Below are positions 883-60,301 of a DNA stretch of 64,000 bases, one piece after another. Each line of letters begins with the position of its first letter. Position 1 is the stretch's first letter. The stretch lies in assembly GCA_964016885.1 (NCBI GenBank), contig OZ024748.1:11656001-11720000 (forward strand), read 5' to 3'. The translations under genes were made by a program, and so were the position numbers. The notes under the pieces are model-generated. The model saw only the letters and a list, made by a program, of their open reading frames with translations, was not told the origin of the DNA and searched no databases. The stretch is from Eledone cirrhosa. Its lineage: Eukaryota.

Positions 883-976
883 GGGCCCCTGACGCAACGG
901 CCAGTTATCTGTAAGCCTGTTTGTTAACAATCTGGAACTACCTGTTGAAACAGCAAGAGCTCAGCCGTCGGGGCCC
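883..976 (+). ncRNA. Degenerate hammerhead; the only full-length version of the family-A motif in this window
   Basis: gggccc-CTGACG(C)-aacgg ccag...ctgg..ctgtt-GAAAC agcaagagctcagcc GTC^ggggccc. The 3' half matches the family-A fold-backs. Confidence 0.55.
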
Positions 977-1286
977 ATAGTCTTTCTAATATAGTCATAC
1001 TCTATTATCCCAAGAAGCGAGTACACTGTTGAATAACGGAATAACTAGTTTAAAACTGGTTCAATCCTGATATTTGTTTCACATATCAATTTGAGAAACC
1101 CTACAGAAAAGCCAATAGCACTGCTAAAACGTCGCCATCTTGCAACGACCAGCGACTAACGTAGAAAGTACAGTTGGAGTGTTCCACATCTTTCAGTCCT
1201 TTCACTTTCTCATGCACATACTCGTTTATATATATGTTTGTAAGAGGGGTGGGGTGAGGAGGAGGAAGAGGGGGGGGGGGGATAAT

Positions 1287-1427
1287 GAAGAAGAAGAAGA
1301 AGAAGAAGAAGAAGAAGAAGAAGAAGAAGAAGAAGAAGAAGAAGAAGAAGAAGAAGAAGAAGAAGAAGAAGAAGAAGAAGAAGAAGAAGAAGAAGAAGAA
1401 GAAGAAGAAGAAGAAGAAGAAGAAGAA
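1287..1427. repeat. (GAA)n microsatellite, representative of the very many (TA)n, (GT)n, (GA)n, (GATA)n, (AGT)n and (TATG)n tracts in the window
   Basis: Perfect trinucleotide run; it explains the poly-E/K/F ORFs. Confidence 0.98.
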
Positions 1428-3599
1428 GGCAAACAAGAAGAAGAAACTAACTGTAGTTCTCATTTTCAATTCATATTTTATGAAAGACTAGAAGAAAAAC
1501 ACACATATTACGTGTTTAGCGAGAATCGTAACAGAAAAATGAAGCAAAGAATCGTGTCAAAAATGGCGGAATTGTTCAATTGAGTGTTTCATTTTGGCTT
1601 TTAGCTGGTTAATCGATTTTAGGTTGGCTGTTCTGTGTATTCGTCTTGTTTTTGTATTCATGTTAATTATATATTCATGCAGTTTATTCCATGGATTTGT
1701 CATATATATATATATATATATATCAATGTAAATATATATCAATATAAATATCCCTTTTGCTTATATATATATATATATATATTTATGTTTATATACATAT
1801 ATGTGTGTGTATGTATATATACATACAAATATTGATTTATATGTGTGTATATATATATATATATATATGTGTATATATGTGTGTATGTATATATACACAT
1901 ACAAATACATTCATATATATATATATATATATATATAATTTAATGGTATGCCGAAGTGTAGTACCTTAAAAACCAATAAGTTATCATCGCCTAGTGCTAA
2001 AAGACTTCCAACTTAATCTTACAAACAAAAACACGAGAATTTCCTCTTTTTCCTTCGTCCTTACTTTCTTTTTATTTCTTACAATTATGGTCTTGGGATG
2101 GTGGTGGTGGAGATGTCAGTGGTGGTGGTGGTGAGAGCGAGGGCAGTGGTGGTAGTGGTGTTGGGTTTTTTCTTTCAATTCTCTATTATTTGTTGATATA
2201 TATATTTGAACCAGTACACACACATATATATATATTATATTCCTGTATGTGTATATATATATATATATATATATATATATATATATATATATACATGTAC
2301 ATATATATATGTGTATATATATATATATATATATATATATACACATATATATATGTACATGTATATATATATATATATATATATATATATATATATATAT
2401 ATATATATATATATATATATATATATATATATATGTACATATATATATGTACATATATATATGTGTGTATATATATATATATATATATATATATATATAT
2501 GTGTGTGTGTGTATATATATATGTATATATATATATATGTATATATATATATATATGTGTGTGTTGTGTGTGTATTAATATATTTATTTATTAGTTTCCA
2601 CAGTATCTGAGATGTCAAAATTCTCATCTTCTCAATGAATATTAAAGAAATTATCTTTTTTAATACAAAAATATAAAAATCCAGAAATTCATAAATCGTT
2701 TGTCCAATTTTGTTTCTTCTTCTTCTTCTTCTTCTTCTTCTTCTTCTTCTTCTTCTTCTTCTTCTTCTTCTTCTTCTACTACTACTACTACTACTACTAC
2801 TACCACTACTTTTTCTTCTTTTTATTCTCTTTCTTCTTCTTGTTATTATTTCTTCTTTTTCTTCTTCTTGATATATTATTTGTTATTATTTGTTTATTCT
2901 AATTTTATTCTGTTTTTATTATTGTTGTTGTTGTCGGTGGTGGTGGTGGTGGTGTTGGTGGGGGAGGGGGGTTCCTGATCCAATCCCTCTCGTTTCTTCT
3001 CTCTCTCCATTCAATAATGACGTGGAAGGAAAGCTGGAGAAATTGCAGCAACAATGAACAATAAAGAGACACGGTGAGATATGTACTAATGAGGTAGAGA
3101 GGTGGTGAGAGGTGGTGGTGAGAGGTGGTGGTGAGGGGTGGTGAGAGGGGCAGGGAGATGTAGTGAGAGGTGATGAGAGAGAGGTAGTGAGAAGTAGCGA
3201 AAAAGGCAGGGAGATGTAGTGAGAGGTAGAGGGAAGTAGTGAGAGGTTGTGAGCGGCGGTGAGAGGTAGAGAGAAGCAGTGGAAGGCAGTGAGAGATAGA
3301 GAGACAGTGAGAGGCAGAGGGAGGTAGAGAGAGGTAGAGAGGGAGAGACTAACAGACAGAGTGAAGTAATGAGAATCAGAGAAAGGTAGAATGAGGTAGG
3401 TAGAGATAGAGAGAGGTAGGGAGAGGTAGAGAGAGGTAGAGTGATAGAGAGGGACAAAGAGTGACAAACAGATATAGAGAGAAGCACTGAGAGGGAAAGA
3501 GAAATTGAGAAAGGTAGAGAGAGAGAGAGAGAGAGAGAGAGAGAGAGAGAGAGAGAGAGAGAGAGAGAGAGGTAGAGAGATAGAGAGGCAGTGTCCACA

Positions 3600-4050
3600 A
3601 AGAGAGCAACACATAGAAAGAAAAAACTGCGTAGATCGTCGAAACACTGGATACCTTTTACAAATGGTGATTAGGAAAACATATCTTGAGAAATTCGTAC
3701 TATGATGATGTCAGAAACGAAGAGGTGTTTAGATAATTATCGCAAAGACTCCAAGACCTTGTGTGAGAGTGGGCGGAAGACATTACTAGCTAGTCATATC
3801 CTGTTGGTAATCAGATCATTGCTATTGAAAATAACCAAGAAGACGAAGGAGAAGATAAGGAAGACCATGGATGATGACAAGGAAGACCATGGATGACATG
3901 TCGTTGAACCTTTTAGGAAGATCCCAAGATTGCCAACAAAAACTCTGATAAGACAGATGAAACACATAACACAACCTTTGAAGTACATTGAAGAGAAAAA
4001 AAAACAAGCCGTCCAATGCGCATGGGTGCGTGTAAAAGATTGACTGACAG
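3600..4050 (+). mobile_element. Possible highly decayed LINE 3' fragment
   Basis: Non-repetitive, purine-rich block with broken peptide words (LASHI, GRPWM) reminiscent of RTE-like C-termini. Weak. Confidence 0.25.
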
Positions 4051-4299
4051 ACTGAACATATTCCTTAACCCTTTTTTGGTTCCTTAACCCACCTGAAACC
4101 GTCTCTGACTGTGTATGATGTATGTATGGACCAATAACTCCTGAGGGAGTAGTAGAGAAGCCATATGGACATACGGCATTCTAGGGCATTTTTAACCATG
4201 GCGAAGCCGATCTCCTCTCCATGTCTGAATACAGAAGATCTCTTCCAGAGAAGGATAGAGAGTGAAAGAAAGGAAGTGAGAAAGAGATATAGAGGAATA

Positions 4300-58266: not shown

Positions 58267-59061
58267 TTAGCTGTATACTTTGTGAAATGACCTAAGAGAT
58301 TTATGGATGCAGTGAGCAAATAAATCGGTGCGTATATTTATTATAGAGTTGAAATTTGAGATAATGGTAAATGTTTCAGCTAGACATAAATTATAAGCCC
58401 TAGATATGGAAGCATTAGAATATGGAGAAGCATTGGATATTTTACGCCAAGAAATTTTGTAATTAATGTTTTTGTCTTTTAAGGACCAGATGAGTTCTGA
58501 AAGTGCAATGTTTGTTCTTTTAAGTGGATATTTAAATGAGGAAGAATGGTTATATAGTCTTGCCTTAAAAGAAGTAGAAGTAGAGCCAATGTAGATATAA
58601 GAATTGGTACTGGTTAGCACCTTACATTCATATACTAGATTTTTATCGAGACAGAAATTATTAAGAGGACATTTAGTTCTATTAGGGCAGTTGCATTTAC
58701 GATTAAGATTATTAACAGAGTTATTTGCAAATGGCCCAGGATTAATTATAATAGGAATTGTATTGGTGGACTTAGCTAAAGGAGGTGCTAATGTTTCCTG
58801 ATTTAGATCACTATTTGAAGCATTCATCAAAGTTACGTTTGACGTCGTATTTATATTTAAGTTATCTTGTCTAGAGTTTACATTGACGTCGAGCCTTATA
58901 GTGTTATTATTATGACGCTCAAGGTTGGATGCATATGAGTTATTATTTAATATTTTAGTATTATGTTTTGAGATAATGTTAGAAATGTTGGAAGTGGTGG
59001 AGTATGAGAATTTAATGGTATGCTTATTAAAAATCTTACTATAAATATGTGAAGGAAGCAA
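58267..59061 (-). pseudogene. PLE linker plus Cys-rich motif and GIY-YIG endonuclease (continues the RT ORF after a frameshift)
   Basis: KIFNKHTIKFSYS; CNCPNRTKCPLNNFC; NLVYECKV...YIYIGSTSTSFKARLYNH (GIY-YIG); LSELIWSLK; NLCLAE; NIRTDLFAHCIH. Confidence 0.88.
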
Positions 59062-59771
59062 TTATCTAACGCCCTAAAAAATAATTTAGGGATATTACTA
59101 ATAAGTGAAAGAGAGAATGGAGCGTTGTACCAAATGATATTTTTATATCTAGGTCTCCTCTTTATGTTATTGGTATGCTTATAACTAGCTATATTACTAT
59201 AAGTTCTGCCAAGATTGGTTTCCTTAGTGTATTTAATTTTGTCTGGATATCCCGCTCTGGATAGCGCATTGTTGTAATAGTTGGCGTTGGCGTCAAAGAT
59301 AAGTTTATTAGAAGATAGATTAGTGATTCTTTTTTCAAAATTTCTGACTATAGCAGTTTTAACATTAATAGGGTGGTTTGATTTAAAATTTACATAATTT
59401 AGGTTCTCATTATCCTTATGGTATGGGTAATATAGGCCGGTATCTATATTAAGGGATATATCTAGGAAGTTAGCTAATTTAACGTTGTTCTCAAATTCAA
59501 TTTTTAGGTTAAGGTGCTTAAATAGTTCAAGTATATTATTCTTGATAATATTAAGGTTTACTATGTTATAGTTTAAGACAGTAAAAAGGGCATCATCACG
59601 ATATATTCCACCGCGAAGTTGAGGAATTTTCCGATTTAAAGAGTTCAAGATGAAGATTCCAACCAAGTCTGTCAATTGCGCTGAATCCGACGAACCCATG
59701 GTGATGTCAAAATTGTTGGAAGTATCAGCTCTTGTCCAATATTCATTGTTAAATGAATATATATATTTCAC
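58947..59771 (-). pseudogene. PLE reverse transcriptase, C-terminal half (palm motifs B-E, thumb)
   Basis: Motifs ITMGSSDSAQLTDLVG, GIYRDDAL (YxDD), NFLDISLN, YHK..LNYVNFKSNHP and IIWYNAPFS are typical of Penelope-type RT. The N-terminal RT motifs are missing, and there is a frameshift near 59060. Confidence 0.9.
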
Positions 59772-59827
59772 TGAGAGGAACTGGGCATATCAGAGTATTG
59801 ACAAAGTTATACACCTCACTAATTCGG

Positions 59828-59882
59828 ACTGCCTGAAGAGGTCACAGCCAAAGATGGCTGTCACCGAAATATATATAGCAGT
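59828..59882 (+). ncRNA. Type I hammerhead ribozyme in the inverted pseudo-LTR-like segment of the PLE
   Basis: actgc-CTGAAGA-ggt c acagcca aaga tggctgt c acc-GAAA tatata TA^gcagt. Perfect 5-bp stem I, long stem II, AU-palindromic stem III. Confidence 0.85.
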
Positions 59883-60301
59883 AATAAACGAAGCCAAATT
59901 TTAAACATTTGACTTATTTATTTTATTTTATTTTACATTACTCCGGAGTAACCAAACCAACCTACGCACTTCGTCGAGTGCTCCAATCTGCATACTGAGG
60001 TGTTGGTATTCAACCAACATATACTCAAAATTTATATATATATATATATATATATATATATATATATATATATATATATATATAAAGAGAGAGAGAGGGG
60101 GGAGGGAGAAATATACGGGGAGAGACATAGAAATTAAGAGGTAGTTAGATATAGATATTTCGTTTTCGTCCCTTGTGTTAATTTTTTAATTATATATATA
60201 TATATATATATGTATGTAAAATGTAAACAGAAATAAAAACACAATCGGTACAGTATATGGAAGGATATATTAGGTTAACGCTTGATATAGCAGGAAGAGG
60301 G

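Follow-up and report, generated by a model that had tools for sequence, protein, structure and literature searches.

Inserts in the window

The window, meaning the whole 64,000-nt stretch analysed here, is taken from the forward strand of Eledone cirrhosa (assembly GCA_964016885.1, contig OZ024748.1, positions 11,656,001-11,720,000). It carries fragments of Penelope-like elements (PLEs), single-armed inserts, two-armed fold-backs and an array of 311-bp units. Arms are called long-ended or short-ended according to the fixed site, long or short, at which they stop.

883-1060, plus: an old, one-armed relative of family A that retains the two halves of an atypical hammerhead
7941-8001, minus: family E short-ended arm with hammerhead remnant
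8011-8080, plus: family E long-ended arm, beginning at the template end point of the 7941-8001 arm (about 3 nt overlap)
10048-10154, minus: family C long-ended arm, PLE 3' end
10151-10216, plus: family C short-ended arm, non-nested, reaching past the long arm by 45 nt on the 5' side
16408-16617: family C fold-back, long arm 16408-16563 (minus), short arm 16554-16617 (plus)
18854-19040: family A fold-back, short arm 18854-18914 (minus), long arm 18930-19040 (plus)
31730-31924: family A fold-back, short arm 31730-31785 (minus), long arm 31787-31924 (plus)
32592-32823: family B fold-back, short arm 32592-32681 (minus), long arm 32682-32823 (plus), predicted type I hammerhead in each arm
33533-33683, plus: family H, single arm ending in (TA)n at the short site
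33704-33859: fold-back of a diverged family A subfamily, long arm 33704-33810 (minus), short arm 33815-33859 (plus)
36365-36574, plus: family C, single arm ending in (TA)n at the short site
38592-38661, minus: family C, single arm, tail only, long site
41707-41823, minus: family E, single arm with predicted hammerhead (core 41786-41764)
42103-45555, minus: left arm of the 311-bp retrozyme array, 11.1 units, with (TA)n joined to its 3' end at the long site
45558-50985, plus: right arm of the array, 17.5 units, with (TA)n joined to its 3' end at the short site (131)
51193-51393: family A fold-back, long arm 51193-51332 (minus), short arm 51333-51393 (plus)
56231-56424: diverged family A fold-back, long arm to 56375 (minus), short arm 56374-56424 (plus)
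56604-56704, minus: family A, single arm ending at the short site
58161-58240: family A insert whose arms do not overlap, long-ended arm of 26 nt at 58161-58186 (minus), short-ended arm 58181-58240 (plus)
58256-59756, minus: family X, RT-thumb/GIY-YIG ORF fragment of a Hydra-like PLE, 5'- and 3'-truncated and frameshifted
59767-60032, plus: family P, 3' end of a separate PLE, hammerhead 59833-59878 plus tail, long site
60216-60338, minus: family D hammerhead insert, single arm (relatives at 52387-52510 and 9715-9793)

Orientation and flanks

All 11 same-family fold-backs in the window are divergent (head-to-head). Ten were called automatically (7939, family E; 10048 and 16408, family C; 18854, 31730, 33704, 51193 and 58161, family A; 32592, family B; 42103, the array) and the eleventh, the diverged copy at 56231-56424, by permissive alignment. 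Across 179 loci (913 kb), 151 same-family fusions were divergent and none was convergent; 80 of the 151 were unselected by query, including 10 that are the window's own. An earlier note on this DNA had claimed exactly this divergent-only geometry, with both 3' ends in (TA)n, and the flanks agree with it as well: among off-edge unselected pairs, 121 of 140 defined 3' ends had (TA)n of at least four repeats within 8 nt, whereas the corresponding share of positions was 4.6% in a blindly chosen 200 kb and 11% across the window. At seven informative loci, interruptions of the flanking microsatellite were direct in six cases and inverted in one. Since the two flanks agree in direction at six of these loci, the (TA)n target existed before the insertion. 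Target-site duplications are unreadable inside (TA)n.

The head-to-head rule with 3' ends in (TA)n is genuine; inverted head-to-head copies, one-ended tails and a preference for (TA)n targets are already published PLE traits. Proposed as window-wide, the rule holds for two-armed inserts but not for single arms, of which 173 unselected copies occur alongside the 80 unselected pairs, and the supposed fold-back at 883 is one arm only (883-1060). Overall, the observation made in the earlier note is partly confirmed.

Two fixed 3' ends

In two-armed inserts, the end points of the arms are fixed and unequal, the long site for one arm and the short site for its partner, a rule that is new here. Long paired with short in 55 of 55 neighbouring divergent array ends (C1:1-222 Mb; about 2e-17 if ends were independent), in all 16 family A pairs within 400 nt (C1:1-27 Mb), and in 62 of the 64 unselected pairs with both ends classed. 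The two exceptions among the latter were one short+short pair and one long+long pair, this last being a copy running into its ORF; elsewhere, one long+long pair occurred among targeted pairs and one short+short pair in a further list. Among single-armed inserts, ends in (TA)n occur at the long site (61) and at the short site (41), and the lone short-site ends have ragged 5' ends. The short site lies 35-98 nt 5' of the long site, with tails of 64-98 nt in the linear families and 35 nt in the array. Exact family A ends number more than 20,000 in the genome. A tail hairpin, RCTC...GAGY, is present in 9 of the 12 reference entries checked (0.3-2.2% in shuffles) and missing from family K, entry E2 and the tail of the 311-bp unit. 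The families number at least 13. The pairing of long with short ends had been overlooked in the earlier note.

Arms and junctions

Of 59 unselected linear pairs, 49 have overlapping arms; 20 are non-nested, of which 10 do not overlap at all, and a further 11 of 58 targeted pairs are not nested. Flush pairs (5' ends at most 10 nt apart) form the largest class, 34 of the 59, and in families with short references flushness may be a reference-length artefact. Flush counts were above those in shuffles for families A (34 vs 29.9), B (8 vs 4.7) and C (9 vs 5.3), and not significantly so for P (3 vs 1.7). Arms of family A differ by 1.5 within loci and by 3.0 between loci; this sharing is weak in B and flat in C (1.09 vs 1.09). 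The inner junction was unique at every locus examined. Different families were fused in 2 of 153 cases (L048 and L084), one joining a long-ended B arm to a short-ended C arm; two RNAs, or later insertion, can contribute to such fusions.

Hammerheads and parent elements

Hammerheads were called with a three-helix descriptor (CUGANGA and GAAA core, NUH site) and are predicted ribozymes. The descriptor was passed, on the sense strand only, by references U, C (a CAGA variant), P, F, H1, E and K and by the window's B copies, compared with 0-2 of 300 shuffles each; B reference L149 failed. Rfam gave no hammerhead match at the gathering score, and minimum-energy folds took the hammerhead shape for P only. 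Family A fold-backs, previously described as hammerhead-bearing, retain the 3' half in the window copies and lack the 5' half. Long family A copies have variant cores, one with U3-A8 and the others mismatched at the 3-8 pair.

The ORF fragment and the hammerhead at 59833 had been read as a single PLE with ORF minus and ribozyme plus. They belong to two families lying side by side, parted by (TA)5 at 59757-59766. None of 12 ORF relatives carries the 59833 hammerhead, so the two are not one element; the ORF family comes with a pLTR of its own (family F), and the family of 59833 lies downstream of another GIY-YIG ORF. The 3' end of the family X fragment meets (TA)n just past the stop, without the family's long 3' UTR. 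The predicted family F hammerhead lies in the 3' UTR (L125) or upstream of the ORF start (L106, L126), in line with a hammerhead-bearing pLTR, partial tandems and (TA)n insertion. An 800-aa open frame in L126 has YRDD at 357 and YFGST at 693. Family X motifs further include RLRWT at 35 and DKT at 123 (RMRWK and DKT in a 15-homologue consensus), CxCX5C at 659, CxxC only at 759 and CxH at 787, set around the conserved E and N and lacking CCHH, with CxCX5C and CxH in the window fragment. A Pfam search of L126 gave no match; the window fragment matched GIY-YIG at E=0.0064, below the Pfam cut-off, and Atlas neighbours have GIY-YIG and RVT_1 in part of their members. Placed by its motifs, family X is probably a Hydra-clade PLE.

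Using tblastn on long copies, a same-strand GIY-YIG ORF end was found upstream of the 3' ends of families B (L143, L149, L150, L153), C (L175, L177, L195) and P (L079, L091, L095, L102). This set their sense polarity independently, as did the downstream ORF start for F. The small families represent truncated PLE 3' ends. Family A, whose long copies gave no joined PLE ORF match within 1.5 kb upstream and which shares the tail hairpin and the long and short ends with PLE 3' ends, probably belongs with them.

The 311-bp array

As the earlier note had described, the hammerhead strand of the array points outward in both arms and both outer ends lie in (TA)n. The long site lies 166 nt past the hammerhead cut. 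The window array holds 28 predicted cores, with a type I hammerhead in every unit of the right arm (first core 45848-45878), and no ORF of at least 120 aa is listed within it. With tandem units, a type I hammerhead in each and no ORF, it is classed by sequence as a non-LTR retrozyme. The unit has 15,052 exact matches genome-wide, and about 1,000 dispersed arrays have exact outer ends (1010 long, 1186 short). We fetched 14 arrays, and the two-armed ones were divergent in 11 of 11 cases.

Locus-private variants recur in every scored unit of both arms (261G in the window, 136C in L040, 89G in L042), and unit length, 310 or 311 bp, agrees between arms at seven of seven arrays. Within the window's right arm, units 1 and 7 have one variant in common. 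Inner junctions link unrelated unit positions and differ at each locus, and the flanks are not mirrored. The unit is self-closing in four of four sequencing runs of unknown type, which tandem DNA and a circle fit equally, and a cloud of unit variants (541 contigs) is present in one public run. Rolling-circle copying from a single monomer fits the arm-wide private variants, which could also stem from a single dominant source array or from subsequent homogenisation.

Discussion

We consider it probable, from the arrangement of the copies, that both nicked (TA)n ends prime the same PLE RNA at two fixed sites, with double rolling circle on the retrozyme. One RT-GIY-YIG ribonucleoprotein would cut both strands of an existing (TA)n, and the two DNA 3' ends would then both prime cDNA synthesis on the one RNA bound by this complex, one from the long and its partner from the short site seen in the inserts. 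The conserved RCTC...GAGY hairpin, flanked by both sites in most families, is a likely protein-binding site. Both cDNAs would proceed toward the RNA 5' end, halt at variable points and be joined end to end, with 0-4 complementary nt or some filler bases at the joint, followed by fill-in, to yield a head-to-head insert with its tail at a single end. Hairpins of 80-250 bp would result from early halts on linear PLE RNA. With the 311-nt retrozyme as template, the two primers would go round one monomer repeatedly, most simply a circle, to give two opposed tandem arrays. In single-armed inserts, the second priming may have failed or left no detectable arm.

The earlier note had invoked twin priming at (TA)n, an interpretation that is partly supported. 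Two priming events are favoured by the non-overlapping arms, the flank direction at six of seven loci and the private variants; the L1 form does not apply, because both start points are fixed and most arms overlap. As in the L1 twin and dual priming described in PMC2837659, two target 3' ends would prime, the product is a head-to-head inversion with short junction homology, and some inserts have adjacent non-overlapping arms. In that account, the first priming is on poly(A) and the second at a variable internal site, with non-overlapping fragments and a TSD, whereas here both sites are fixed and internal, arms mostly overlap, the nuclease is GIY-YIG and the TSD is unreadable.

Dual priming could instead use two RNAs, each RT subunit carrying its own, usually from the same source, with an asymmetric complex setting the long and short ends. 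L1 dual priming is on record (PMC2837659, in part), and two templates would be simplest for arms that mostly overlap, by kilobases in the arrays, as well as for the two different-family fusions, including the long(B)+short(C) one. We nevertheless think this unlikely, given that 151 of 153 fusions are same-family despite at least 13 families, and that arms agree in private variants and unit length, while many unit variants coexist in one public run.

Less likely still is self-priming, in which a single cDNA or antisense transcript would bend back on itself and be copied into hairpin form, nuclease resolution setting the second end. This is how Arkhipova 2013 (PMC3846280), in its treatment of rotifer Penelope, reads head-to-head repeats with palindromic junctions; as here, head-to-head inverted pLTRs are the commonest form there, with a tail on one. 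Identical arms would come free, and the flush 5' ends (34/59, modestly above shuffles) also fit such an origin for a subset of pairs. Folding back requires nested arms, however, and neither a folded cDNA nor the rotifer model of self-priming on an antisense template can be the source of the non-nested pairs (20/59 unselected, 11/58 targeted) or of arms that do not overlap (10/59, and the 7939 insert). Short-site ends also occur alone (41), with ragged 5' ends, and array junctions join unrelated unit positions. Self-priming on antisense RNA is the one explicit model that we found for PLE insertions; it fails on these data, and folding back does not hold as a general rule.

In-place growth by unequal crossover, with later inversions or assembly artefacts, is very improbable: local amplification is favoured for retrozyme arrays in Li 2026 (10.64898/2026.07.22.740005, in part), concerted evolution would homogenise units too, and one variant recurs in units 1 and 7, but about 1,000 dispersed arrays share the same two exact outer ends in one orientation, with a different inner junction in each, unmirrored flanks and long+short pairing throughout (55/55).

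Returning to two-site priming on one RNA, its components have precedents. In the sections of Craig 2021 (PMC8557442) on Hydra-clade PLEs, these elements have, like those here, a C-terminal GIY-YIG, the RW, DKT, CxCX5C, CxxC and CxH motifs, a pLTR hammerhead, (TA)n insertion, an inverted 5'-truncated copy and a one-end tail. Unlike here, these traits are given qualitatively there, without a long+short rule and with a tail of 30-40 bp, and the mechanism of tandem and inverted insertions is termed undefined. In the in vitro results of Frangieh 2024 (PMC11167929) on Anolis Poseidon PAc, the PLE protein nicks and extends both strands of AT-rich DNA, two internal RT start sites on the RNA delimit the tail, uncleaved RNA is the template and a dimer is predicted. 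That element is of a different clade, and in those results two-strand extension is not tied to inverted structure or to a choice of site per strand.

The array resembles metazoan non-LTR retrozymes, for which ~300-bp tandem units without an ORF, each with a type I hammerhead whose helix III is palindromic, and PLE mobilisation via circular RNA (as a proposal) are described (PMC7229834, Li 2026, PMC4209133; each in part). It differs from these descriptions in that its two arms oppose each other and end in (TA)n at the fixed long and short sites; the word 'inverted' is absent from the available portions of Cervera 2020 (PMC7229834) and Cervera 2014 (PMC4209133), and occurs in that of Li 2026 in one reference title only. 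Our results bear on whether retrozyme arrays originate by RNA-circle copying or by local amplification.

Whether two-site priming is the normal route of PLE integration we regard as evenly balanced: one ribonucleoprotein would hold one RNA by its tail hairpin, with the two ends left by a double-strand cut committed to separate fixed starts, and retrozyme circles would be turned by double rolling circle into kilobase opposed arrays in one step. About 1,000 young arrays and more than 20,000 exact family A ends yield a sharp prediction for the in vitro PLE system already available: each strand of a target should start at its own RNA site. Should two-site priming hold, a single mechanism would account for inverted PLE repeats, the tail on one side and the arrays of retrozymes. 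It would constitute a programmed two-primer form of target-primed reverse transcription, with relevance to the evolution of telomerase-related RTs and to the growth of (TA)n-rich genomes.

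Methods

Loci were collected by genome searches with the 311-bp retrozyme unit (the array monomer), with the small hammerhead-bearing insert families A, P, B and C and with the ORF, and 20 blind 10-kb stretches were added. References were built for the hammerhead families met, after which adjacent opposite-strand arms were classed; pairs not selected by the query are termed bystanders. Loci overlapping the window were dropped (L001-L030, L045, L075, L105, L142 and L167; within that block, L026-L028 overlap L031 and not the window). The final count leaves out the near-duplicate loci L102, L115 and L119, as well as families G, I, J and M, whose ends are undefined and whose pairs were all divergent in the first count.

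Divergent inserts and their (TA)n flanks

The window has a GC content of 33% and more than 200 (TA)n runs, and its parent genome comprises 3.0 Gb in 1,796 contigs. A motif scan located hammerhead cores in 11 units of the left arm of the retrozyme array and in 17 of the right, two opposed cores in family B, and one further core at 59833.

Arms of the 311-bp array
42103-45555, minus strand, left arm
45558-50985, plus strand, right arm

The earlier note held that two-armed inserts here are divergent, and all 11 are, with 3' ends outward. Ten are same-family fold-backs aligned to references oriented by hammerhead, and the eleventh (56231-56424) was recovered by permissive alignment; each runs minus-then-plus. 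The insert at 883, counted under the same rule, proved to have one arm only (883-1060). Of the hammerhead with which they were credited, the family A fold-backs retain GAAAC-helix III-GUC alone; its 5' portion appears solely in long copies, whose cores are atypical. At the gathering score Rfam gave no hammerhead match to these ribozymes, and at E<=10 the 150 matches listed for 31600-46300 were of microsatellite-driven miRNA type, with no hammerhead. A three-helix descriptor found hammerheads on the sense strand only, with 0-2 matches per 300 shuffles for each reference. An older retrozyme relative, an 81% diverged fragment of the 311-bp unit, lies at 12354-12420.

Across 179 loci (913 kb), same-family fusions were divergent in 151 cases and convergent in none; 71 were query-targeted and 80 were bystanders, ten of these in the window. 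In off-edge bystander pairs 140 3' ends were defined, and 121 of them were followed by at least four TA repeats; the background frequency was 4.6% for the blind stretches and 11% for the window. Both the orientation and the flank enrichment predicted in the earlier note are thus real and far beyond chance. The blind-picked 200 kb held four pairs, all divergent, three with TA at both ends. Single arms outnumbered pairs among bystanders (173 vs 80). A first count (182 loci, 17 reference entries) had given 164 divergent and no convergent same-family fusions, plus six convergent different-family rows, which derived from flank DNA in the B reference and disappeared after masking. Divergent pairs were also formed by four further hammerhead families, G, I, J and M (L125, L136, L145 and L063); the arms of the G, I and J pairs both extend to the end of the reference, which leaves the long and short sites of these families undefined. 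Two different-family fusions were also divergent.

Head-to-head fusions of different families
L048:1773-2115, B with C
L084:1411-1754, A with P, 3 nt of junction homology

Pairing of a long and a short end

In each family the 3' ends fall at two fixed points, a long and a short site. The distance between them is 35 nt for the array and 64-98 nt for the other families, and a feature absent from the earlier note's rule is that an insert carries one of each. Among 77 off-edge bystander pairs, 62 were long+short, one long+long and one short+short, and 13 had an unclassed end. Searches with exact patterns of end plus TA recovered 1,010 long array ends and 1,186 short ones, and exact unit matches numbered 15,052. 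Among the ends listed for the first 222 Mb of one contig, C1 (80 long, 100 short), 55 neighbouring array ends within 20 kb were divergent, and all 55 combined long with short; one further neighbour was same-strand and three were convergent, the latter appearing to lie between separate arrays. For family A, exact matches numbered 21,338 at the long end and 8,769 at the short end. Neighbours no more than 400 nt apart in C1:1-27 Mb numbered 16, every one divergent and long+short, and one short+short pair occurred farther along the end list. In 9 of 12 reference entries, from families partly related to each other, an RCTC...GAGY hairpin begins a few bases from the short site (shuffles, 0.3-2.2%); it is absent from the array tail (the stretch between the two sites), E2 and K.

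Independent starts of the two arms

Divergent geometry alone is not decisive, because the snap-back of one cDNA yields an identical picture. Snap-back would require nested arms, and the 59 long+short bystander pairs of linear families comprised 34 with flush 5' ends, 5 nested, 10 non-nested and 10 non-overlapping, so that 20 run against it. In non-overlapping pairs the long arm halts within the tail; 58161-58240 is an example in the window, and 7939-8080 is similar with about 3 nt of overlap. Some short-site ends stand without a partner arm, 41 of them with TA. Together, the non-nested and non-overlapping arms and the solitary short-site ends indicate that both arms start independently on sense RNA. 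Flush ends modestly exceeded shuffles in A, B and C, and not in P, so a shared stop, or snap-back for a subset of inserts, is possible.

Families A, B, C and P each have a preferred zone in which the arms stop at the 5' end. For B and C it lies immediately 5' of the hammerhead core and for A within the loop of helix II; for P it is a sharp point some 120 nt 5' of the core. The cDNAs of these four families cross the ribozyme cut site, and their template was therefore uncleaved RNA. Of ten array junctions compared, seven had overlaps of 0-4 nt and three carried 1-19 inserted bases. A reiterated 7-nt word at the L034 junction and an extra short stretch in one right-arm unit of L032 suggest RT stutter.

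A probable single template for both arms

Every scored unit of both window arms carries 261G, as does L031, and ten other arrays carry 261A in all scored units; the position was not scorable in L041, L043 and L044. L040 and L042 have their own variants, each in both arms, and unit length (310 or 311) was concordant between arms in 7/7 arrays. Family A arms differed by 1.5 mismatches within loci vs 3.0 between (43 columns, 37 pairs), with subfamily and private letters common to both arms; the trend was the same in P, weak in B and absent in C. These shared variants and unit lengths favour one template for both arms and, in arrays, a monomer copied repeatedly, judging from the sequences compared. 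The fusions at L048 and L084 show that the rule has exceptions. A circle of six units was rejected as the template of the window array, since the variant of units 1 and 7 is missing from unit 13. In run X1, of unspecified kind, summed unit depth was 1-6 x 10^5 vs about 7,000 expected for genomic copies in a run of that size, a figure given no weight here because depth summed over contigs does not measure level; no RNA run was among the sequencing runs listed as holding the unit.

The target site

Asymmetric interruptions in both flanking microsatellites ran in the same direction in six loci and were mirrored in one, and the (TA)n run therefore pre-existed the insert. Addition of (TA)n by RT at each end is excluded by these direct interruptions (6/7), and a long-read fold-back artefact by the unequal ends and unmirrored flanks. 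Neighbouring inserts parted only by a TA run were convergent in 35 cases, divergent in one and same-strand in six (first count, before cleaning of the B and C references), a mostly tail-to-tail arrangement that repeated use of TA runs as landing sites would produce. No reference tried gave a match to a 94-bp insert at 58046-58139, which sits between TA runs immediately to the left of the 58161 hairpin.

Identity of the ORF fragment and small families

The window's Penelope-like element (PLE), described earlier as one element with ORF minus and ribozyme plus, resolved into two families. A first-look search of the genome gave 47,504 candidates for the ORF fragment (58256-59756), and none of the 12 relatives fetched with flanks carried the 59833 hammerhead, which belongs to family P and is separated from the fragment by (TA)5. 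After the stop codon the relatives have a long 3' UTR, at whose end lies the hammerhead of family F, also found upstream of the ORF start; family P lies downstream of another GIY-YIG ORF end. The fragment may lie beside family P through a two-family priming event.

An intact frame of 800 aa (L126) contains RLRWT, DKT, YRDD, CxCX5C, YFGST, CxxC and CxH, and its GIY-YIG core has no internal CxxC. By its motifs this ORF family (X) appears to fit the Hydra clade, for which section 11 of PMC8557442 gives a diagnostic set and insertion into (TA)n. Sequence searches of Pfam, NCBIfam and PDB with the full ORF gave no informative match, and a homodimer prediction for residues 1-480, with the alignment not used, scored zero and weighs neither way. 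Families B and C, like P, lie downstream of GIY-YIG ORF ends, and their tiny hairpins are therefore severely 5'-truncated PLE 3' ends; B, C, P and F/X are PLEs. Family A behaves like such ends, and its own ORF was not found.

Other features of the window

21338-27842, roughly four repeats of a unit of some 2 kb (94-99% similar), its conserved blocks separated by long (TAG)n expansions
15952-16362, 39775-40195 and 57477-57861, unclassified 400-bp dispersed repeat, three copies 91-93% alike
15295-15726, 16843-17263, 34231-34431, 35330-36027 and 52745-52898, abundant 150-230-bp dispersed repeat, SINE-like by size
8685-8739 and 9415-9469, inverted repeat with 55-bp arms (96% similar, some 680 bp between them) that may be a MITE or a further fold-back
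52076-52441, minus strand, frame whose terminal peptide is presumably similar to the C-terminal end of restriction-like LINE endonucleases
63478-63951, minus strand, open frame of 157 aa and ordinary composition, possibly a host exon

Discussion

Of the twin priming at TA proposed in the earlier note, the independent starts of both arms and the prior presence of (TA)n stand; the cut, the priming and the circular template are steps that we infer. A GIY-YIG double nick would open the target, both target ends would act as primers, and a single RNA, possibly circular for arrays, would serve both arms, with the tail hairpin as a putative binding site. PLE RTs are not known to carry RNase H, and its absence would allow one RNA to be read twice.

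Extension of both strands, with two start sites delimiting a tail, has a biochemical precedent in Frangieh 2024 (PMC11167929). That PLE copies are inverted head to head, bear a tail on one side and target (TA)n, all traits of the Eledone cirrhosa inserts as well, is described in PMC8557442 and PMC3846280, and PMC3846280 accounts for inversion by self-priming on antisense RNA. Copying of ribozyme-made circles into tandems by PLE RT is proposed in PMC4209133 and PMC7229834, and Li 2026 favours local amplification for retrozyme arrays. The literature covered, with few subscription papers, contained neither an account of PLEs by twin or dual priming nor a description of retrozyme arrays with two arms. 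A pattern of this general outline is already known from PLEs. What turns it into a specific, testable mechanism is the strict long+short pairing, together with the non-overlapping arms and the two-armed arrays from a seemingly single template.
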